From the NCBI GenBank assembly GCA_964428655.1, contig CAYRYE010000001.1, forward strand, positions 218,258 to 282,257: a DNA stretch of 64,000 bases, in the 5' to 3' direction. A program made the translations under genes and the position numbers. The notes beneath the pieces are model-generated. The model worked only from the letters and a program-made list of their open reading frames with translations, was not told the DNA's origin and made no database searches. This DNA comes from an uncultured Gammaproteobacteria bacterium. GTDB lineage: Bacteria; Patescibacteriota; Microgenomatia; UBA12405; JAHJSD01. Positions within the stretch are counted from its first letter, which is position 1; each line of letters starts with the position of its first letter. Shown here one piece after another: positions 24,155 through 48,885 of the stretch.

Positions 24155-24595
24155 CTATGAGAATAATTGTGCTAGATAGCTGTCGAGGATTGGTTAGTGA
24201 AGTTACAGAAGGGCGGAAAAAAGGCCATGAATTGGGTCGACGTTTTGTTAGGAACCAGAGAGCAGTAGCTCAAAGCGGAGATCCGAAAATAAGGCGGGCG
24301 TGTGGTCCAGCCGCTCGAAGGGCGATCAGTGAAGGAATTTTAGGTGAACCCAATAGTAATGTAAGAGTAAGGGATTTTGTTGCTGACGCACTACTTCCGT
24401 CCGAAAGTCCGCTTAGCTTGTTAATACCCACAGGAAGAGAACTTCGGTCAAGGGTAAGAAGAGTGGGAAGAAACGTGGGGTTTGTGCAGGGAGTAAGTGA
24501 AGAGTTGGGTGGTTTAGGAAACATTGATCAATTGGTTCCGAGACCTAAACAAAGAGGAAGATAGCTTCATCAGTCTAAAGACAATTGTTTTTTTA
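24155..24595 (+). ncRNA. Candidate structured ncRNA (purine-rich, GC-enriched; contains GAAAGUCCG; identity unresolved: RNase P RNA or another housekeeping RNA?)
   Basis: Extended -10 TGTTATAAT at about 24139-24147. Downstream about 440 nt has GC content visibly above the surroundings. The only long ORF on either strand is Arg-rich and lacks an SD. The locus ends in a palindrome (ACAATTGT) plus U7. Confidence 0.35.
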
Positions 24596-24672
24596 ATTCT
24601 CCCTTCCCTATTTTTCAACCTTTTGGGTGAAAGGCAGAGGGGAATTAAAGGGGTGAATGCCTGAGTCCAAAA

Positions 24673-25095
24673 TTATTTTAGTAATCTTACTTTTTGAACT
24701 GTATTTTCAAAGTTTTTCATCAATTCGTGTTCCCAAATTCTAATAACTTTCCAAGTTTTCTTCTTGTAATATCTATTAACCTTTTTATCTCTTGTCTTAT
24801 TTCGTTCAATTTTGCCTGTCCAATATTTTTTATTTGTCGACGGCATTCTGCAATGTTTTTTACAACCGTGCCAAAAACAAGAATCAATAAAAATTACTGT
24901 TTTATATTTTTTCAAAACCAAATCAGGTTTTCCAAAATATTTTGTTGAATTTTTTCGATACCTAAGTCCAGCTTTCCAAATCGCTTTTCTAAAATCAACC
25001 TCAATCTTACTATCCCTACTCCTCACTTTTGACATTATTTCACTTCTTTGCTGCTTCGAAACTGTATCTGTCATCTCAGTCGTTAAAAAGCTCAA
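24673..25095 (-). CDS. vsr: Very-short-patch-repair endonuclease (Vsr, T:G mismatch-specific)
   Basis: IFIDSCFWHGC motif diagnostic of the Vsr family; overlaps the upstream gene by 20 nt. Confidence 0.88.
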   Translation of the reverse strand: MSFLTTEMTDTVSKQQRSEIMSKVRSRDSKIEVDFRKAIWKAGLRYRKNSTKYFGKPDLVLKKYKTVIFIDSCFWHGCKKHCRMPSTNKKYWTGKIERNKTRDKKVNRYYKKKTWKVIRIWEHELMKNFENTVQKVRLLK

Positions 25096-25837
25096 CAGGA
25101 TTTATTTTAAATTGAAGCATTTTTGAAGTATCTCGTCCCGCATCCCCTCCTTTCCTTTGCATTCCGATTCTCCCAATTTTTAAACTGCCTTGCGATGTTA
25201 TTTTAACATCGCCGTCTCCAAAAACATTCATGGCCTCGTTTATTGACTTCAGTATCCATCTACTACTGTCATTAATTTTTAGAATCACCAAAACCCAGTC
25301 GGCAGAAAATTCTCCCCTGCCCTTTAACAAATCGGAGACAATCAAAATTTTGTTATTTTCAAAAAATCTTACAACTTTATCTTGATCGTCTTTATTCATT
25401 TCTGTTAAAAACATTCTCCGCTTGTCTTTTAATCCCTTTTTGATCGGCTTTAGCTCCCCGGTAAAAAGCTTCAGGATTTTTGCGATATCTTCCGGGATGT
25501 TCCAAAGTTCAATATACTTATCAACCCATCTTTTGTCTATTTGGTTAAATCCTTGAGGATTGCTAACAAGTTTTACTTGCAGGTTTTGCAAGTCCTCTTG
25601 AGATTTTAACTTAATGATAATTTTAACTCTAACTTGAACATCAGCTTTGTACTGTCCGCGAACTTTTTCTGCTTTTACATATTCAATGTCTGAAATACTA
25701 TAACCCATAACTTCTAACCACTTTTGAGCCGTTTTGTCTTTTTTCCAATCGTTAAAACGATTAATTACGTTTTTTTCGTTTCTGAAACCGCCTTTTGCGA
25801 TTTGAGAACCTAATTTCGCTAACTGTTTTTTATTCAT
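25076..25837 (-). CDS. Probable Type II restriction endonuclease (cognate of the adjacent C5-MTase; size and layout resemble HhaI/HinP1I/MspI-type enzymes)
   Basis: Sits between the m5C-MTase and vsr with 4-nt and 20-nt junctions; no other recognisable family. The call rests on context. Confidence 0.45.
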   Translation of the reverse strand: MNKKQLAKLGSQIAKGGFRNEKNVINRFNDWKKDKTAQKWLEVMGYSISDIEYVKAEKVRGQYKADVQVRVKIIIKLKSQEDLQNLQVKLVSNPQGFNQIDKRWVDKYIELWNIPEDIAKILKLFTGELKPIKKGLKDKRRMFLTEMNKDDQDKVVRFFENNKILIVSDLLKGRGEFSADWVLVILKINDSSRWILKSINEAMNVFGDGDVKITSQGSLKIGRIGMQRKGGDAGRDTSKMLQFKINPVELFND

Positions 25838-25841
25838 AAAT

Positions 25842-26819
25842 TCAATTTAAGTAATTTAATAAACTTTGACCAAATGATTCAACGACATTTACGGTCATGG
25901 CGTTCCCCGCCTGACTTAACAAATCAGTGTCCGAAATTTTACCTTTGACTTTTTTTGACAACTTTTCGGGAAACCCTTGTAACAACAAAGATTCATATCC
26001 AGACAGTTTTCTAAATTTTCCGCCCCTCACATATAAAATACCATGCCTCCCTTTTCTAAGAGTTGGCACTTTGCCACGATATAGGCGCAAGTCAGATTGG
26101 CGAGTATCAATGACTAAAAATTGTTCTTTTAATAACTCATTGATTGAAAATTTACCTTTGTTGTATTTATTTTCCAAATATCTCAAAAAGGTTTGATAGG
26201 CTCTTTTCTTTTCATGAAACTCTAACTCATTAGTGTCAATCAAATATTCTTTTAATTCCGGTTTTTTAACTGATTGTGGAAAATTAAAAGCGTTACCGTT
26301 TCTTAAATCCTTCCGCACACCAATAAAATAAATTCTCTCCCTCATTTGCGGAACTCCATAGCACAAACTGCTTACTAGTTTCCAATAAACTTTATAACCA
26401 GCCTTTTCTAGCTCGCTTAAAATGTTTTTAAAAGACTGTCCATTGCCATGATTCAGTAAACCCTTTACATTTTCCAGAATGAAATATTTCAGATTTTTCG
26501 CTTTCATTATGTTTATCAACCCATAAATAATCTGACCTCGCGGATCGCACATTCCAGTTCTTTGTCCAATGACTGAGAAGGTTTGACATGGAAAGCCTGC
26601 AATCATCAAGTCAAAGCCCGGCAAGTCATCTGGAGTTATCTTCATCAAATCACCATAATTAGCTTCATTTTTTCCAAAAAATACCCTATATGTTTCTTCG
26701 GCTTTTCTATTAATTTCCGAAAAACCCACACATTTCATTCCACTATTTTCAAGACCAATTCTCCCCCCGCCAATACCAGCACAAAAATCTATAAATTTCA
26801 GTTTCTTGTTCAATGCCAT
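25842..26819 (-). CDS. DNA (cytosine-5)-methyltransferase
   Basis: Motif I FCAGIGG, IV GFPCQ, VI ENVKGL, VIII QMRERIY, X GNAM; an NHGNG stretch after motif VI resembles M.HhaI-like enzymes. Confidence 0.9.
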   Translation of the reverse strand: MALNKKLKFIDFCAGIGGGRIGLENSGMKCVGFSEINRKAEETYRVFFGKNEANYGDLMKITPDDLPGFDLMIAGFPCQTFSVIGQRTGMCDPRGQIIYGLINIMKAKNLKYFILENVKGLLNHGNGQSFKNILSELEKAGYKVYWKLVSSLCYGVPQMRERIYFIGVRKDLRNGNAFNFPQSVKKPELKEYLIDTNELEFHEKKRAYQTFLRYLENKYNKGKFSINELLKEQFLVIDTRQSDLRLYRGKVPTLRKGRHGILYVRGGKFRKLSGYESLLLQGFPEKLSKKVKGKISDTDLLSQAGNAMTVNVVESFGQSLLNYLN

Positions 26820-26890
26820 AATTTCATTTTACTAAAAATTTCTATTAATTCGTATTGCCTTTGTTTTTTTAAGACAAAACCAATAGAAAA

Positions 26891-27892
26891 CTAAGACTTA
26901 CTAGGTCTCTCCTTATTTTTTTTACGTGACCTTTCAACAAAGTGCTCAACTTTGTCTTTCCAACCAGAAATATGGGGGACTCTATTAAACTCCTTTCCAT
27001 GTCTACCAGACAAGAGCTCTGTTCTGGTGCACTTACTCAGCTCTTGCCAATTACTATACATAATATAAATAGCATTTCCGTATTCAACGTTTTCAAAAAC
27101 TACTAGATCTTTTTCTAAAAGTGCACCAAAGTAACGTTGTATTCCGCTCATTCCGTAAACAAGCTTTTTGGGCCTAAGTTTTTTAAAAAAGTCGTATCTT
27201 TCTCCAGCAGTCTTTTTCTTTTCCTCTGGAACGGGCGATTTATATCCGGCAAAAATTCTATCCACAACTTCTTCTCGGGTCCCTGGTGGAAGAATTATCC
27301 AATCAACCTTTGTTGTTTGTAAGTAATCATTGAATGAGGCATTTGCTTTTTGAACCCCGCACATGCCAATATTTTCCTGAAGGATATTTAAACACTTTAA
27401 CAGATCTCTTTCAAAATTTGGATCTTTTCTGTCAAGCACGCTATCTAGCTCAAATGTAAGCACATACTGCTTTTTATTCTTACCTTTTTCCTTGGTATTA
27501 ATTTTGACACAAATATGTTCTGGTCCATAAAAATCTCGTGGATATTTCCTGTATGGAAGGTCGACACGATGGGACCCATTGTACCAATCTCCATAATTAG
27601 GACATTCAACCGAATTATAATGAGTTTCCTTGGGGAGGTCTTTACGAATAACTGCATATCCATCGATATTTCTCCTGCTGTATTTTCCACTAGTCACTGG
27701 AGGAACCGCAGGATCTTCAGGAACAATGAGCTCCTCGTTGCTTAAATGAATGCCAAGATGTTTAAGTTCTCCTTGTAGTAACTGTTGAGAAGAAACAATT
27801 TTAAGACATGCTGCTACAATATAACGTTCATTGAGTCTTTTTAATTGCACGTGTACAAGTTTTGGAATCTTCCGAATATTTTTTTTAGCCAT
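26891..27892 (-). CDS. Hypothetical protein (333 aa), translationally coupled to lexA
   Basis: Start overlaps the lexA stop by 8 nt; no recognisable motif. Confidence 0.6.
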   Translation of the reverse strand: MAKKNIRKIPKLVHVQLKRLNERYIVAACLKIVSSQQLLQGELKHLGIHLSNEELIVPEDPAVPPVTSGKYSRRNIDGYAVIRKDLPKETHYNSVECPNYGDWYNGSHRVDLPYRKYPRDFYGPEHICVKINTKEKGKNKKQYVLTFELDSVLDRKDPNFERDLLKCLNILQENIGMCGVQKANASFNDYLQTTKVDWIILPPGTREEVVDRIFAGYKSPVPEEKKKTAGERYDFFKKLRPKKLVYGMSGIQRYFGALLEKDLVVFENVEYGNAIYIMYSNWQELSKCTRTELLSGRHGKEFNRVPHISGWKDKVEHFVERSRKKNKERPSKS

Positions 27893-28523
27893 GCTGGTTT
27901 TGATAATTAATAGGTATTACGCTAACAACAACACCCTGAACTTTAAAGTCATTTGTTAAAATAATTGGTTTATTTTTTGGGTTGGATGACTTTGGCTTCA
28001 ATACAATTGCATTCCCGACGTGATTATATTCCTTAATAGTGGTCTCATCGTCTATTAGAGCAACCACTCGATCTTTATTTTTGGCCGTTGATTGCTGACG
28101 AATCAATACCAAATTACCATCGTTAATGCCAGCCAAATCCATAGAATCTCCGGATGCACGGAGAATAAAGTATTTCGACCCGGATTTAAGCATAGACGTA
28201 GTGACTGGAATATTACCTTCTATGTTTTCTTCTGATAGTAAAGGCATACCGCACGCGACCATTCCAACAAGCGGAATGTCTTGGGTTTGAGCATGAGTTA
28301 AATTTGACTGAGGATCTTTTATCAATTGATATTTTCCGGATTTTATCTTTTTTAACACATTCTTTTTTTCAAGTTTTTCTAATATATCTTGAGCTGATCT
28401 AGGAGATTTATAGCCAAGAGCCTTCATAAGCTGACGCACTGATGGACTCGATCCATTATGCACCAAAGAATTTCTAATATGCCTTATTGCTTGAAACTCT
28501 TTTTTGCTTAGTTGTTTTTCCAT
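27885..28523 (-). CDS. lexA: LexA repressor (wHTH plus S24 peptidase)
   Basis: N-terminal LexA wHTH (LGYKSPRSAQDILEKLEKKNVL); C-terminal GDSM catalytic Ser and downstream Lys. Confidence 0.88.
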   Translation of the reverse strand: MEKQLSKKEFQAIRHIRNSLVHNGSSPSVRQLMKALGYKSPRSAQDILEKLEKKNVLKKIKSGKYQLIKDPQSNLTHAQTQDIPLVGMVACGMPLLSEENIEGNIPVTTSMLKSGSKYFILRASGDSMDLAGINDGNLVLIRQQSTAKNKDRVVALIDDETTIKEYNHVGNAIVLKPKSSNPKNKPIILTNDFKVQGVVVSVIPINYQNQHG

Positions 28524-28532
28524 ACTGTTTGT

Positions 28533-28561
28533 ATGTTACCGTATGTTTTAATCCTTGTCAA
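28533..28561 (-). promoter_or_regulatory. sigma70-like promoter for lexA (-35 TTGACA, 17-nt spacer, -10 TAACAT), overlapped by a GTATGTT-N3-GTATGTT direct repeat
   Basis: Read from the minus strand: TTGACAaggattaaaacatacggTAACATacaaacagtATG. Confidence 0.5.
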
Positions 28562-28746
28562 GAGTCCAAGTCGAATACTAAAAAAGCCATAAAACATCCC
28601 GCCAATGTAGTTGGCGGGATTCCTTAATTCCCCTCTAAAATAAAAACAAACTTATCTTTCCCCATACTCAACCTTCTTGGGGTTGAAAAATATTTTTTGA
28701 ATTGCGTATAACTAGTGCTTATGTGAATTGTTTTCGTAATTTCGTT

Positions 28747-28823
28747 TGGTCGGGGATGCCGGACTCGAACCGGCGGCCTCGCGCACCCCATGCGCGCGCG
28801 CTAACCAACTGCGCCAATCCCCG
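28747..28823 (-). tRNA. tRNA-Pro (anticodon GGG)
   Basis: 77-nt cloverleaf folded by hand: C1-G72 acceptor stem, GCGC D-stem, loop AUGGGGU (G37), TTCGAGT T-loop, encoded CCA. Confidence 0.85.
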
Positions 28824-28838
28824 TTTCATTGGTTGTAT

Positions 28839-28857
28839 TTTAACATGAATTGTGTTA
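28839..28857 (+). promoter_or_regulatory. Inverted repeat TTAACA-N7-TGTTAA upstream of recA (candidate SOS operator)
   Basis: Perfect 6-bp inverted repeat about 35 nt upstream of the recA ATG. Confidence 0.35.
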
Positions 28858-28891
28858 AAAAAAGTAATATCATTGATTCGTTGAAAGGGGT

Positions 28892-29920
28892 TTGATGACT
28901 GGAAAAAGAGACGAGAAAAAACAAAAGGCTCAAGCTGTGAAGATAGCAATGGCGCAGATTGAAAAGCAATATGGCAAAGGCTCGATAATGAAGATGGGGT
29001 TAAAACAGAGGAGATTGGAAGTAGATGCCATTTCCACAGGATGTTTGCCTTTGGATATTGCTTTGGGAGTTGGCGGTATTCCTCTTGGGAGAGTAACAGA
29101 GATTTTTGGTCCCGAAGCTTCGGGGAAAACAACTATTTGTCTTCATATTATTACTGAAGCTCAGAAAATGGGTGGATCGGCAGCCTTTATTGATGTTGAA
29201 CATGCTTTGGATCCGAGCAGGGCCAAAGCAATTGGTGTTAAACTGGAGGATCTGATTATTTCTCAACCCGATACTGGAGAGCAGGCTTTAGAAATTGTCG
29301 AGACTTTAGTTAGGTCAGGGGGATTAGATATTGTTGTTGTTGACTCAGTAGCCGCTTTAGTACCTAAAAGTGAAATTGAAGGCCAAATGGGTGATGCTTC
29401 TATTGGAGTTCAGGCAAGGTTGATGTCTCAAGCTTTGAGAAAATTAACGGGAGCAATTTCTAGATCAAAAACGGCTGTTATTTTTACTAATCAAATTAGG
29501 CACAAGATTGGAGTTTTCTTTGGTAATCCCGAAACGACTTCGGGTGGTTTGGCATTAAAGTTCTATTCTTCGGTGAGAATAGATTTAAGAAGAAGAGCAA
29601 GTATTAAAAATTCCCAGGGGGTAGTTATTGGCTCAATGCATAAAGCTAAGGTGGTTAAGAATAAGGTGGCGCCTCCATTTAGAGAGGCAGAGTTTGAGAT
29701 TTTAAATATTGGTGGAGTTTCCAAGATGGGCAGTTTGCTTGATGCAGGTATTCAGGTTAAAGTTGTTGTTCAGAGTGGAGCCTTCTATAAATACGGGAAA
29801 ATTAACCTGGGGCGAGGACGAGAAGCGGCAAAACAATTTTTGACAGGAAATCCTAAATTGGTTAAGGAAATTGAGAAGAAAATTTGGAATGTGATTGAAA
29901 GTGCTTCTTCAACCTTTTAG
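28892..29920 (+). CDS. recA: Recombinase RecA
   Basis: Walker [10 protein letters not shown]; L1/L2 loop regions; 342 aa. Confidence 0.95.
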
Positions 29921-33652: not shown

Positions 33653-34454
33653 AAAACTAAAAGAGTGGTTGCACAGTTTTAGAGTTTATCTGGTTTGGTT
33701 GCAGATGAGGTGGCTGCGGCATTTGGAGTATCGCTTTAATGCAATTGCCAATTCTTTTGGTTCGCTTTTTTGGGTGGGAATAACATTGTTGACTTATAAT
33801 TTAATTTTTCAAAAAGTGGATTCTTTAGCGGGATGGAGTTGGAACGAGATGCTGGTTCTGTTTGGAGTTTACAATCTTTGGTGGGGTCTGATGGTGACCT
33901 TTTTTAACGGCGGCTTGCGGATTGGCGAACGGGTAAGAAGAGGAGGGATGGATAAAGTATTGCTTTGGCCGGGAAAAGCATTCTTTTATGTCTCAATGAA
34001 ATTTGAACCGGAATTGTTAGTTCACTTTTTAACCGGAGTGATAATATTTGTTATTTCTCTCAATCGAGTCCAAATTAATTTGTCACTTTTTAGTTTTATT
34101 TTGTTTTTTGTTCTTTTATTGAATAGTTTGGCTTTGATTTATTTTGTTTCTATTCTCTTTGGGTCAACAGCCTTTTGGTTTATTGAAAATAGGCAGTTAG
34201 CGGATTTTTTTTGGCTTTGGGAAACTTTGGCGAAATACCCGGGAGAATTCTTTTCCGGCAGCAAGGTGTTGCATTGGGCTGTTTTTACTATCTTGCCGGT
34301 GGTTTTCATTGCCGTGATTCCAACAGAAGTGGTTTTGGGCAAAATTAAATGGGGAACAATTGGAAGCGCGTTTTTAATTACTTTCATTTTTGCGATTTTG
34401 GCTAGGAAAGTTTGGAGAGTGGGTTTAAAAAGATATACTGGAGTATCAATTTAA
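33633..34454 (+). CDS. ABC-2 family permease (paralog type B)
   Basis: Six TM helices; homologous to the ORF at 35259. Confidence 0.75.
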   Translation: MRQLATEKLKEWLHSFRVYLVWLQMRWLRHLEYRFNAIANSFGSLFWVGITLLTYNLIFQKVDSLAGWSWNEMLVLFGVYNLWWGLMVTFFNGGLRIGERVRRGGMDKVLLWPGKAFFYVSMKFEPELLVHFLTGVIIFVISLNRVQINLSLFSFILFFVLLLNSLALIYFVSILFGSTAFWFIENRQLADFFWLWETLAKYPGEFFSGSKVLHWAVFTILPVVFIAVIPTEVVLGKIKWGTIGSAFLITFIFAILARKVWRVGLKRYTGVSI

Positions 34455-35255
34455 ATGAAAAAGTACTGGCTTATTTTCAAACTAACTTTAATGGAGTATT
34501 TTGTCTATCGGCTTAATTTTCTTTTGTGGCGGTTTCGGAGCGTAGTTTCTTTTTTGACCTTAGTGTTTTTTTGGCAGGCAATTTATGGAATCCGGCAGGA
34601 AGTTTTTGGTTATCAAAAATCTCAAATGCTGACTTATATTATTGGGATTACTTTTCTCCGAGGGATTGTTTTTGGCAGCAGAACAGCGGATTTAGCCGGA
34701 ATGATTAAAAGTGGCGATGTGGTTAATAAATTTTTAACTCGACCATGGAATGTGATTAAGGCTTGGTTTTTCCGAGATTTAGCAGCCAAATTTTTAGATA
34801 CGCTTTTTGTTTTTCTAGAATTAAGTTTAATACTCCGGTTTATTAGTCTGCCTTTCTATTTGCCGAAAGATTGGCGGTTCTTATTACTTTTTGGAATAAG
34901 TTGTTTGTTGTCAATAGTTCTTTACTTTTTTATTAACTTTTTCTTTTCAATCATTGCCTTTTGGATTGATAATATTTGGGCGCCGCGTTGGCTTTTTGGA
35001 GTGATTTTTTTGGAATTTATGTCAGGAGCCTTCTTCCCTTTGGATGTTTTACCAAAAACATTATTTAATTTTATTAAATTAACCCCATTTCCTTACTTGA
35101 TTTACTTCCCGATTAAGATTTACTTGGGCCAAGTTGATGTTTTAGGAACAATTAAGATATTAGGACTGATGTTTTTTTGGTTGTGTTTAATTTTGCCTTT
35201 AACTAATTTAGTTTGGAAAAAAGGGTTAAAAGCTTATTCTGCTTATGGCGGTTAG
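34455..35255 (+). CDS. ABC-2 family permease (type A')
   Basis: N-terminus (MKKYWLIFKLTLMEYFVYR) parallels the permease at 32870. Confidence 0.75.
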   Translation: MKKYWLIFKLTLMEYFVYRLNFLLWRFRSVVSFLTLVFFWQAIYGIRQEVFGYQKSQMLTYIIGITFLRGIVFGSRTADLAGMIKSGDVVNKFLTRPWNVIKAWFFRDLAAKFLDTLFVFLELSLILRFISLPFYLPKDWRFLLLFGISCLLSIVLYFFINFFFSIIAFWIDNIWAPRWLFGVIFLEFMSGAFFPLDVLPKTLFNFIKLTPFPYLIYFPIKIYLGQVDVLGTIKILGLMFFWLCLILPLTNLVWKKGLKAYSAYGG

Positions 35256-37575: not shown

Positions 37576-38154
37576 ATGATTAGTAGTATAAGAGGAAGAA
37601 TTATTCACAAGGGGATTGATAGAATAGAGATTGATACCAATGGCATTGGTTGGGAAGTTTTTCTTTCTAAAAACGGGCTTTCAAAAGTGGTAATGGATGA
37701 AGAAATAGAAATTTTTACTTTTCATCATCTTGCTGAAGGATGCGATCTTCTCTATGGCTTTCTCTCCAGGAGAGATAAGCGCGTTTTTGAAATGCTGCTT
37801 TCTGTTTCAGGCATCGGGCCCAAAATATCAATGGAAATTTTTTCTGTTGGCAATGGAGATAGAATTTTGCGGGCTGTTTCAGAAGCTGATGTGGAATTTT
37901 TTCAGCAGGTAAAAGGTCTTGGGCGCAAAGGCGCTCAGCGAATTATTGTTGATTTAAAATCAAAGGTCGGCAATATTAAAGAACTTGATTTAAAAGCTGA
38001 AGAGGGGGGTAATGAGATTATTTATCAAGCCCTCCAGGGTTTGGGCTTTACCAGGAAAGAAATTTCCCGATCATTGAGAGAACTCCCTGAAAATTTGCAA
38101 TCTGAAGACGAAATAATTAAATATGCTTTAAAGCAATTGGGAAAAAGTGGATAA
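37576..38154 (+). CDS. ruvA: Holliday junction branch-migration protein RuvA
   Basis: OB domain plus tandem HhH (GIGPK). Confidence 0.88.
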
Positions 38155-47530: not shown

Positions 47531-48522
47531 TGGAAAAGGTTAAGAAGATTGAAATCTCTCATAGAACAATAGTCTTCTCTGTTTTATTTCTCGTCGCTAT
47601 TTGGTTTCTCTATCAAATAAGGGAAATTTTGTTAGCCCTTTTTATTTCCATAATCCTAATGGGAGCTATTAATCCTACCGTTGATCGTTTGGAGAGGTGG
47701 CGCTTGCCTCGTTGGCTGGCAATCCTTTTGATTTATCTTGTTTTATTGAGTTTAATAATTACTGCCATTGCTGGTTTGATTCCTCCCTTAGTTGATCAAA
47801 CCAGTCGATTGGTACAGGTAGTAATTGACCTTTCTGACAGACTTTCCTTTTTGGGACTCTCTTCGGAGAAAATAAGATTACAAATTCAAGAGCTGGGAGC
47901 GTTACCAACTCAGATATTAAAACTGGCAGTTTCGATATTCTCTAATATTATTGCTATCTTTGCCATTTTAGTAATCACTTTTTATTTGCTTCTGGAGCAT
48001 AAAAACTTGGATAGATATCTTTTCTTTCTTTTTGGTCAGAAGCGTAGAGAAAGAGCTAAAAGAGTAGTCGGCAAGCTGGAAAAAAAGCTTGGCGGCTGGG
48101 TCAGGGCAGAGTTACTTTTGATGACAATTATTGGTTTGCTTTCATACATTGGTTTTCGCTTGCTGGATCTCCAATTTGCTTTGCCTCTGGCGATCTTGGC
48201 CGGACTGTTGGAAGTCGTTCCCAATATTGGTCCTACTTTATCAGCGGTGCCAGCTGTTGCCATAGGATTGTTAGAATCATCTCTGATTGGTCTTTTAGTT
48301 TTGGCCTGGACTTTTATTATTCAACAATTGGAAAACAATTTGATTGTTCCTAAGCTAATGCAGAAAACCGTTGGGGTCAATCCTTTGATCACAATTTTGA
48401 CATTAGCGGTTGGTTTTAAACTAGCGGGGGTAATGGGGGCTGTTCTGGCAATTCCAGTTTATCTGGCAATTGAAGTAGTTGTTTCAGAGTTTATCTCTTT
48501 AAAAAAAGCCAAAGGCCAATAA
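47530..48522 (+). CDS. AI-2E family transporter (PerM/YhhT-like membrane protein)
   Basis: About 8 TM helices; AI-2E/UPF0118 architecture. Confidence 0.75.
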   Translation: MEKVKKIEISHRTIVFSVLFLVAIWFLYQIREILLALFISIILMGAINPTVDRLERWRLPRWLAILLIYLVLLSLIITAIAGLIPPLVDQTSRLVQVVIDLSDRLSFLGLSSEKIRLQIQELGALPTQILKLAVSIFSNIIAIFAILVITFYLLLEHKNLDRYLFFLFGQKRRERAKRVVGKLEKKLGGWVRAELLLMTIIGLLSYIGFRLLDLQFALPLAILAGLLEVVPNIGPTLSAVPAVAIGLLESSLIGLLVLAWTFIIQQLENNLIVPKLMQKTVGVNPLITILTLAVGFKLAGVMGAVLAIPVYLAIEVVVSEFISLKKAKGQ

Positions 48523-48540
48523 GCCAGATTCTGTTTTTTC

Positions 48541-48725
48541 CGATATGTTTTATGTATCGGAACTGGATTCATCTATCTATGCTCTCCACCTGGTGTTAAT
48601 GAGGGAGGCTTCTCAACACCGATTTGAGATTGCTCAAAGGAGGGTTGCCTCGTTTCACCCCCGATATGTTTTATGTATCGGGACTCGTCTCTGTGGCCCT
48701 ATCTCGTCCCCCGATATTTCGGGGA
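48541..48725. repeat. Cluster of short perfect hairpins: two copies of CCGATA-TGTTTTATG-TATCGG (48541-48561, 48662-48682) and CCCCGA-TATT-TCGGGG (48710-48725)
   Basis: Seen directly in the sequence, in a 360-bp non-coding stretch. Confidence 0.7.
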
Positions 48726-48885
48726 AGTTCTAACTTGCGTTAGAACACTTTGCCTCCGCGAGTCTGGACTTTCCTGATCGAAATTTCGACCCGAATCCTT
48801 AGCCTTTAACCAGATATATTATACCATGGAATGCAGGAAAAAGCCCCTCATGCGTAAAAGAGAGGCTTTTTCAAGTTAACGAGCT

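Follow-up and report, generated by a model that had tools for sequence, protein, structure and literature searches.

A conserved three-part element at a lexA promoter as the probable self-operator of a LexA clade associated with defence genes

Introduction

The genes for LexA, a proline tRNA and RecA lie next to each other in the window, that is, the whole 64-kb stretch of DNA analysed here, and the question then is which sequence the LexA protein of this locus recognises and what is placed under its control. The turnover of LexA motifs is well documented, with seventeen motifs reported, and motifs built as direct repeats are found in Alphaproteobacteria, Patescibacteria and Balneolaeota (PMC8565304, PMC7739468). 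In the window a sequence-only reading had picked out two candidates, a direct repeat over the lexA promoter and a palindrome upstream of recA, and had treated both as possible LexA sites. One half of this proposal stood: the lexA repeat proved to be part of an arrangement kept at the promoters of most relatives, whereas the recA palindrome contains no ATAC/GTAT core and its symmetry is not conserved. We argue that a three-half-site element at lexA is probably the self-operator of a canonical LexA-type repressor and, as such, probably gates the defence cassette that lies downstream.

The lexA promoter and the element overlapping it

The following features, all on the minus strand, define the lexA end of the locus.

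27885..28523, minus strand: lexA coding sequence, 212 amino acids, with the Pfam domains LexA_DNA_bind and Peptidase_S24
28533..28561, minus strand: lexA promoter, -35 TTGACA (28561..28556), 17-nt spacer, -10 TAACAT (28538..28533)
28521..28547, minus strand: candidate LexA operator, AACATAC-GGT-AACATAC-AAACA-GTATG
28596..28620, minus strand: terminator-like hairpin with T-run, ending the tRNA-Pro transcript, upstream of the lexA promoter

The promoter, proposed earlier as TTGACA-17-TAACAT and as essentially leaderless, is borne out in its sequence. In a promoter scan it agrees with the consensus at 10 of 12 positions and is the sole sigma-70-like match in 28400-29000, and the form TTGACA-17-TAnnAT is kept in the relatives L081, L082 and L083. 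Since the -10 box is separated from the ATG by nine bases without a Shine-Dalgarno sequence, the description as essentially leaderless is reasonable, and the lexA mRNA would be expected either to lack a leader or to carry one of one to three bases. Hairpins occur at the matching position in L081, L082, L001 and L005.

The direct repeat GTATGTT-ACC-GTATGTT is present over this promoter as described, at 28531-28547 and with a period of 10 bp. The sequence-only reading overlooked a third, inverted half-site, GTATG at 28525..28521, the ATG of which serves as the start codon of lexA. On the minus strand the half-site cores are thus ATAC (28544..28541), ATAC (28534..28531) and inverted GTAT (28525..28522), so that the core element ATAC-N6-ATAC-N5-GTAT spans 28522-28544, with two direct copies 10 bp apart and the inverted copy 19 bp past the first. 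The whole layout on the lexA strand is TTGACA-aggattaa-AACATAC-ggt-AACATAC-aaaca-GTATG, in which the middle half-site shares bases with the -10 box, and the element as a whole stretches across that box and the probable start of transcription to take in the lexA ATG as well.

The exact pattern ATAC-N6-ATAC-N5-GTAT occurs once in the 64-kb window, at lexA, and a weight-matrix scan of the window places the same site on top at 10.2 bits, the runner-up reaching 1.1. Simpler patterns are each unremarkable when taken alone in 64 kb: the repeat with up to two mismatches occurs once against 0.34 expected, ATAC-N6-ATAC once against 0.75, and the recA palindrome with up to one mismatch once against 0.35. 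The lexA repeat is significant because it is conserved in relatives, a conservation that the recA palindrome does not share.

Conservation of the element across the LexA clade

Conservation was assessed in 80 genomic loci with LexA homologues of 52-64% identity, together with three closer ones (84, 69 and 68% identity). In 610 kb around the lexA homologues the exact pattern ATAC-N6-ATAC-N3-5-GTAT occurs 61 times, on every occasion between -10 and +80 nt relative to a lexA start, and in 398 kb around recA homologues it does not occur at all. When flipped and three-direct-copy forms are counted, the exact three-half-site arrangement is found at 75 of 84 lexA promoters, as against none of 5000 random 96-nt windows drawn from the same loci. 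Away from lexA promoters only three weight-matrix matches above 8 bits are found in the 1 Mb of fetched loci. Both the matrix and the regular expressions were built from the very promoters described, a circularity that the random-window and recA-locus controls lessen and do not remove.

The three closest relatives keep TTGACA-N9-cATAC-N6-ATACA-N4-GTATG and the same ATG. In a MAFFT alignment of 17 lexA promoters both ATAC cores are invariant and the GTAT core is nearly so, the flanks being variable. The unit is flipped relative to lexA in 12 loci and present as three direct copies in 15, and at the Bacteroidota loci it overlaps a TATATTTG box, which we take to be the Bacteroidetes -7 promoter element. 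Because the unit occurs in both orientations and in combination with the different promoter type of Bacteroidota, a protein-binding site fits these observations better than a promoter feature. Judged by its conservation, the three-part lexA element is a real site, widely conserved and belonging to the clade.

The sequence-only reading had assigned the operator to "this lineage"; it belongs instead to a LexA clade spread over several phyla, with members in genomes labelled Omnitrophota, Nitrospirota, Bacteroidota, Acidobacteriota and BRC1; the assignment to Omnitrophota derives from named LexA matches and locus titles. At least 569 loci of the clade are represented in GTDB, and the complete genome CP129479.1 is one of the carriers. 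In the Bacteroidota homologues (L034-L078) the protein has the canonical LexA domain and the operator is of the ATAC form. The element is also present in L032 and L038, labelled Patescibacteria or Paceibacterota, labels that are doubtful; L038 was considered as a true Patescibacteria anchor and set aside, since its LexA, used as query, retrieved relatives named as Bacteroidota.

Genes downstream of lexA

In the window lexA opens a block of genes lying on one strand, the remaining members of which are listed here.

26891..27892, minus strand: ORF333, 333 amino acids, no known function, overlapping the lexA stop codon by 8 nt
25842-26819, minus strand: C5 cytosine methyltransferase (Pfam, PADLOC)
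25076-25837, minus strand: R.HinP1I-family endonuclease (Pfam, PADLOC), its gene overlapping vsr
24673-25095, minus strand: Vsr, repair nickase (Pfam, PADLOC)

The three genes beyond ORF333 make up a Type II restriction-modification module with its repair nickase. No terminator-like site was detected in 24400-28000, and since lexA comes first in this block, the operator would probably gate the cassette as a whole. ORF333 is probably translationally coupled to lexA. The gap between ORF333 and the methyltransferase gene measures 71 nt, and a separate promoter driving the restriction-modification genes could lie within it, so that the case for their control by LexA is weaker than that for ORF333. 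In the relative L083, lexA is accompanied by R.HinP1I (82% identity) and Vsr (67% identity). The link between LexA and the restriction-modification cluster, which had been suggested from the window sequence, thus looks real, as lexA heads the block and defence genes follow it in most relatives.

This last statement draws on 66 loci in which a co-directional gene starts beside the lexA stop codon, mostly after a gap of 0-26 nt. The first such gene encodes DUF2188 in 17 of the 66 (a match to PDC-S16, a candidate system of PADLOC), a cyclase of the CD-NTase/SMODS type in about 8 and a patatin in 4; PycTM, Cap15, SAVED, N6 methyltransferases and MazE occupy this position twice each, and ThsB-TIR, Abi_C, Schlafen-AlbA, a KAP NTPase and NOV_C once each. 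Around two-thirds of the first downstream genes match defence families, and in second and third place are found ThiF, E2 and JAB (Cap2, Cap3), AGS_C, methyltransferases, TIR, SLATT, PemK and R.HinP1I. None of the nearest upstream neighbours of the clade lexA genes belongs to these defence families; these neighbours comprise housekeeping genes, conjugative coupling proteins, resolvases and toxin-antitoxin genes. At the level of gene order, the association of the clade lexA genes with downstream defence cargo is therefore clear in the loci surveyed, and the enrichment could in part reflect the position of lexA beside an insertion hotspot. Identities of 52-64% across phyla, together with the recombinase and conjugation neighbours, suggest an accessory, mobile regulator. 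Small ORFs of 68-97 aa are often seen after lexA.

The LexA protein

The window protein is, by domain content and alignment, a member of the LexA family. It combines an N-terminal LexA-type winged helix-turn-helix (PF01726, residues 3-58, E 6e-10) with a C-terminal S24 domain (PF00717, E 5e-27), scores 153.4 bits against the NCBIfam equivalog TIGR00498, above the cut-off of 110.95, and aligns end to end with E. coli LexA structures from residue 4 (E ~1e-27). The alignment equates its Ser/Lys dyad, S127 (in GDSM) and K164, with S119 and K156 of E. coli, and both residues are invariant across 24 LexA homologues. In the linker it reads V-A-C-G where E. coli LexA has V-A-A-G; the Cys is nearly invariant and the Gly invariant in the clade alignment, and the predicted scissile pair is C91-G92. 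Cys-Gly is the scissile bond of UmuD, for which reason cleavage at this pair is plausible. PADLOC returned only a marginal AbiEi match for the window LexA (E 3.5e-5) and no match for two relatives, and the plasmid and phage collections searched contained no close relative.

The protein shares with E. coli LexA the family, the domain order and the catalytic Ser and Lys, and in E. coli, too, the operator overlaps the core promoter of the repressor's own gene. The differences lie in the details of recognition and cleavage. The E. coli SOS box is the single palindrome CTGT-N8-ACAG, whereas here we find ATAC/GTAT half-sites, three in number, two direct and one inverted; the E. coli cleavage site is Ala-Gly, as against the predicted Cys-Gly here; and the recognition helix reads SPNAAEE in E. 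coli and SPRSAQD in the window protein. In the LexA-DNA structure N41, E44 and E45 of the E. coli protein contact bases, and since the residues aligned to these are R, Q and D, a new specificity would be expected. In further distinction from the E. coli system, recA here has no box and lexA is leaderless or nearly so.

Comparison with known LexA boxes and defence regulators

The window element had been held to be neither the E. coli nor the Gram-positive box, and indeed both consensus sequences are absent from 28500-28900. The comparison was widened to twelve published LexA-box consensus sequences (E. coli, Gram-positive, Alpha, Verrucomicrobia, Bdellovibrio, Cyanobacteria, Balneolaeota, two of Bacteroidetes, Xanthomonas, Leptospira and Geobacter), of which, at relaxed mismatches, none was found in the same interval save for a Geobacter-like string inside the tRNA gene. 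Tandem half-sites as such have precedents in the Alphaproteobacteria box GTTC-N7-GTTC and the EMSA-validated Balneolaeota box TTACACATATTTTWTACATA (PMC7739468), and the half-site TACA(C/T) of Balneolaeota is similar to the ATACA core described here. The repeat period is however 10 bp here, the Alphaproteobacteria box having 11 and that of Balneolaeota 13, a third, inverted half-site is present in addition, and the Balneolaeota consensus gives no match at the lexA promoter even at five mismatches. Moreover, the Balneolaeota regulon includes recA and translesion polymerases (PMC7739468), of which there is no sign here. The ATAC motif was not found in the searchable literature; the LexA motif of Patescibacteria is described as a direct repeat (PMC7739468), and an earlier description of the ATAC motif is possible.

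Among the S24 repressors, the non-canonical LexA proteins of Bacteroidetes, which repress damage-inducible genes in Bacteroidota, carry a DNA-binding domain of the phage CI type and use the palindromic boxes CTAA-N5-TTAG and GGA-N5-TCC (PMC8565304). The Bacteroidota homologues of the present clade differ in having the canonical LexA domain and the ATAC operator, and neither of the two palindromic boxes was found in 28500-28900.

A functional parallel is provided by the BrxR-type CapW and by the pair CapH/CapP, where a repressor likewise heads variable anti-phage cargo (CBASS, restriction-modification-like, DUF2188). Repression by these proteins is relieved by DNA damage or infection, and the site bound by CapW lies over the -10 box of the operon it controls (PMC9122588; bioRxiv 10.1101/2022.04.27.489752). 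The folds are unrelated, a helix-turn-helix with metallopeptidase (CapH/CapP) or a WYL domain (CapW) as against a single-chain LexA with winged helix-turn-helix and S24 domains; capH/capP point away from their cargo, whereas lexA here runs in the same direction as its cargo and opens the operon; and the trigger here, unlike that of CapW and CapH/CapP, would be RecA-stimulated self-cleavage. By analogy, then, the window LexA resembles CapW and CapH/CapP in function only and not by homology. No searchable paper joins LexA with CBASS, Pycsar or DUF2188.

Proposed mechanism

Bound at its operator, LexA would occlude the -10 box and the transcript start and so exclude RNA polymerase. DNA damage, or the ssDNA-RecA filaments formed during phage infection, could then stimulate LexA self-cleavage at C91-G92 by the S127/K164 dyad, upon which transcription would be derepressed for lexA and ORF333 and probably also for the restriction-modification genes and vsr, provided that the block is co-transcribed and induced in this way. 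A LexA dimer requires only two half-sites and the operator has three; these could be used by one dimer in alternative registers or by two cooperating dimers. In the sequence examined, the regulon of the window is probably the lexA-led defence cassette, and a repair regulon is not indicated; elsewhere in the genome a wider regulon with repair genes may exist.

A more general reading, which we advance tentatively and would place just short of an even case, is that the horizontally spread LexA clade characterised by SPRS and the ATAC operator constitutes a RecA-sensing switch for interchangeable anti-phage cassettes and is not primarily a master of repair. The cassettes concerned comprise CBASS types I and II, Pycsar effectors, TIR, restriction-modification, DUF2188/PDC-S16 and ORF333.

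The principal alternative is that the ATAC motif is the SOS box of a master LexA in the classical sense, with more sites in front of repair genes such as uvrA, dinB and imuA elsewhere in the genome, and that the adjacency of defence genes is incidental. The window protein does satisfy the LexA equivalog model, SOS regulons universally have the autoregulation of lexA at their core (PMC8565304), and in two distant loci (L040 and L080) recA lies behind lexA on the same strand. Against this, the 64-kb window contains no second operator site, the matches above 8 bits outside lexA promoters are as rare as noted above, and the cargo consists of defence genes and not of repair genes. The sequence-only reading had proposed, as a check, a genome-wide motif search upstream of recA and other repair genes, and the outcome at recA points in the same direction: the best operator match upstream of the window recA has 5 of 12 mismatches, and the recA upstream regions of 70 relatives score at background level. 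Together with the spread of the clade and its recombinase and conjugation neighbours, which suggest an accessory, mobile regulator, these observations lead us to regard a classical SOS role as rather unlikely, albeit deserving of serious attention.

The binding protein

The preferred reading, a self-operator of LexA, presupposes that LexA itself is the binder, which we consider very probable from the comparison of loci. The downstream genes differ between loci, and LexA is the likely binder because its gene is the only constant neighbour of the operator. In every operator-bearing homologue Y-K-S-P-R-S stands at the head of the recognition helix, and the sole homologue without the motif, L059, a single case, reads L-K-S-V-K-S, with SVKS in place of SPRS.

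It appears quite improbable that the protein bound at the conserved element is some regulator besides LexA. Such a reading could appeal to the fact that the assignment to LexA derives from sequence comparison, and to the small ORFs often seen after lexA as conceivable candidates. Yet no downstream gene is constant, the commonest, DUF2188, being limited to the 17 of 66 loci given above, LexA is present at every site, and the one LexA with an altered recognition helix is the one that has no motif.

The palindrome between tRNA-Pro and recA

The features of the intergenic region are as follows.

28747..28823, minus strand: tRNA-Pro, anticodon GGG (ARAGORN; Rfam tRNA model, 60.7 bits)
28837..28845, minus strand: putative extended -10 element of tRNA-Pro, TGTTAAAAT, coinciding with the left arm of the palindrome
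28840..28858, no strand: palindrome TTAACA-N7-TGTTAA, with perfect 6-bp inverted repeat arms
28833..28861, plus strand: putative recA promoter, -35 TTGTAT (28833-28838), 17-nt spacer, extended -10
28895..29920, plus strand: recA (Pfam RecA, E 1e-123), with its ATG at 28895 after AAAGGGG

The sequence of the palindrome, as distinct from its interpretation, is exactly as had been described. The extended -10 assigned to recA, TGT-TAAAAA at 28853-28861 (TGTTAAAAA), includes TGTTAA, the right arm. Relatives were examined in 80 metagenomic loci with RecA of 61-76% identity, among which the divergent tRNA-Pro/recA layout is common and recA, rny, hup and an ABC transporter follow one another in conserved order. 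In the alignment of the tRNA-Pro/recA intergenic region what is conserved is TTG(T/A)AT-TTTAnCA-N7-TG, within which ATTTTAnCA is invariant or nearly so; read on the minus strand the latter becomes TGnTAAAAT, an extended -10 that precedes the 5' end of the tRNA by about 14 nt. The recA side, TTG(T/A)AT-17-TGn-(A-rich hexamer), is kept in about 20 relatives. Of the right arm of the palindrome the TG alone is invariant, and since the remainder is free (GACACA, CGAAAA, TCAAAA and others), the symmetry is not under selection. On this alignment the palindrome is best explained as the overlap of two divergent extended -10 promoter elements.

An operator here, whether for LexA or for another dimeric regulator, controlling recA, tRNA-Pro or both, is accordingly not the reading that we favour, and we hold it to be very improbable. 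It could claim the perfect arms, as well as the location, which covers the recA spacer and -10 region and the -10 region of tRNA-Pro. Yet the 11 relatives with the divergent layout keep only ATTTTAnCA and TG, precisely the extended -10 positions, the ATAC/GTAT core is absent upstream of the window recA, where the operator matches no better than stated above, and chance alone would supply 0.35 such palindromes per window at up to one mismatch. Rfam finds nothing in the intergenic region besides the tRNA, the best other match being ncr1575 (25 bits, E 0.15). None of the 80 RecA-anchored loci has lexA within 3 kb of recA, so the adjacency of the two genes is confined to the window genome and, probably, L081.

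As regards the last alternative, that the lexA repeats are by-products of promoter and start-codon context and not a protein-binding site, it is true that the middle half-site overlaps the -10 box, that the third contains the ATG and that the two-half-site patterns occur at chance level in 64 kb, but with the unit flipped or tripled in the loci counted above, the ATAC cores invariant even as the -35/-10 context differs between phyla, and the pattern missing from all random windows and all recA loci, we consider it extremely improbable.

Implications

The self-operator reading has consequences at several levels. It provides a concrete LexA site candidate for phyla without experimental genetics, namely Omnitrophota and the Thermodesulfovibrionia-type Nitrospirota. 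It illustrates that guessing at motifs from one genome may succeed only by half: the recA "operator" would have misdirected any reconstruction of the regulon. ORF333 and DUF2188 are nominated as candidates for damage-induced immunity.

If the more general switch reading is true, the clade would be the third class among the regulators of defence operons, with a mechanism unlike that of CapW or CapH/CapP; it would occur in Omnitrophota and Nitrospirota and, in Bacteroidota, on conjugative elements, and the oldest bacterial DNA-damage sensor would be tied directly to the expression of CBASS, Pycsar and restriction-modification systems. The reading would also account for the sporadic canonical LexA genes in Bacteroidota, a phylum reported to be without them. 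Cultivable carriers are available, among them Winogradskyella damuponensis JCM 17633, Arenibacter echinorum DSM 23522, Sediminibacterium magnilacihabitans DSM 22423 and Pseudochryseolinea flava.

Additional observations

Two further kinds of match in the window were considered and rejected as being at chance level: ATAC-N4-GTAT at 34435-34446, which runs across the end of one ORF and lies 9 nt ahead of the next start, and three-half-site matches with two mismatches at 37624 and 44587, both inside ORFs. The ORF listing begins the recA ORF at TTG 28892.

The block from vsr to lexA is flanked by an inverted pair of short sequences.

24636..24648, plus strand: AGAGGGGAATTAA, inverted partner of the minus-strand copy at 28624-28636

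These are the only two exact copies of AGAGGGGAATTAA in the window, and both are preceded by ATTTTTCAACC.

Defence genes downstream of lexA

Variable anti-phage genes follow lexA of the clade studied on the same strand, usually after 0-26 nt, both in the window (24673-28523) and at the loci of its relatives (L001-L083, L164 and L167), while no defence genes were found among the upstream neighbours of lexA at these same places. This cargo includes CBASS cyclases with Cap2, Cap3, Cap15, patatin or SAVED, as well as the Pycsar component PycTM, TIR, restriction-modification genes and DUF2188, which matches the PADLOC candidate system PDC-S16; conjugation or recombinase genes adjoin several of the loci.

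LexA homologues have been reported as absent from complete Bacteroidetes genomes (PMC8565304). Bacteroidota at loci L034-L078, among them Winogradskyella damuponensis, Arenibacter echinorum, Sediminibacterium magnilacihabitans and Pseudochryseolinea flava, carry canonical LexA-domain proteins with 53-57% identity to the window LexA, together with the ATAC operator, a candidate three-half-site LexA element over the lexA promoter (ATAC-N6-ATAC-N5-GTAT in the window). In these bacteria lexA stands at the head of CBASS or Pycsar cassettes, some of which are adjoined by conjugative-transfer genes.

S24 repressors at the head of defence cassettes may reach beyond the ATAC-operator clade, because a different LexA-like clade, with the recognition helix GS(K/T)RTV (L166 621-1271; L167 3349-3996), also directly precedes CD-NTase and Cap15, or DUF2188 and ORF333, a 333-aa protein whose gene in the window overlaps the lexA stop. 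The ATAC repeats are absent from this second clade at both loci.

Predicted LexA cleavage site

The self-cleavage bond of the window LexA is predicted to be Cys-Gly (residues 89-94, VACGMP), as in UmuD and in contrast to the Ala-Gly of characterised LexA proteins; its Cys is nearly invariant throughout the clade.

The tRNA-Pro/recA region and possible lexA-recA operons

Overlapping predicted core promoters, in which the recA -35 box overlaps the -10 box of tRNA-Pro, would drive divergent tRNA-Pro and recA in the window (28824-28894) and at loci around RecA relatives (L087-L111), and many Omnitrophota-like metagenomic contigs keep this layout together with a gene order in which recA is followed by rny, hup and an ABC transporter. 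In two distant members of the LexA clade (L040 3986-6107; L080 2026-4185) one strand carries lexA, a small ORF of ~90 aa and recA, with GTATAC-N5-GTATAC at the lexA promoter, and recA may therefore be under LexA control there through operon membership.

The ~125 nt between tRNA-Pro and the terminator-like hairpin (28621-28746, -) are conserved at the nucleotide level with L081, a closer relative, but conservation as an ORF was not found between the two; no Rfam family matched (best ncr1575, 25 bits, E 0.15). The segment may encode a small RNA that shares a transcript with tRNA-Pro.

Inverted repeats around the vsr-lexA block

The exact 13-mer AGAGGGGAATTAA has just two copies in the window, mutually inverted, each preceded by ATTTTTCAACC and together enclosing the block from vsr to lexA:

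24636-24648 (+), AGAGGGGAATTAA, exact match
28624-28636 (-), AGAGGGGAATTAA, exact match

A rough post-hoc estimate of chance is ~5e-4. L081, L001, L005 and L015 also keep the copy on the lexA side. The pair could represent cassette ends or a terminator-associated repeat.

Other observations in the window

ATACTGGAGTAT (ATAC-N4-GTAT; 34435-34446, +) lies within an operon of overlapping genes, 9 nt ahead of an ORF start at 34455. Sites of this type occur at chance level in the window (0.35 expected), and the GGAG inside it may simply be a ribosome-binding site. A structural RNA gene is also found:

48504-48810 (-), bacterial RNase P RNA class A; score of 106 bits, slightly above the gathering score
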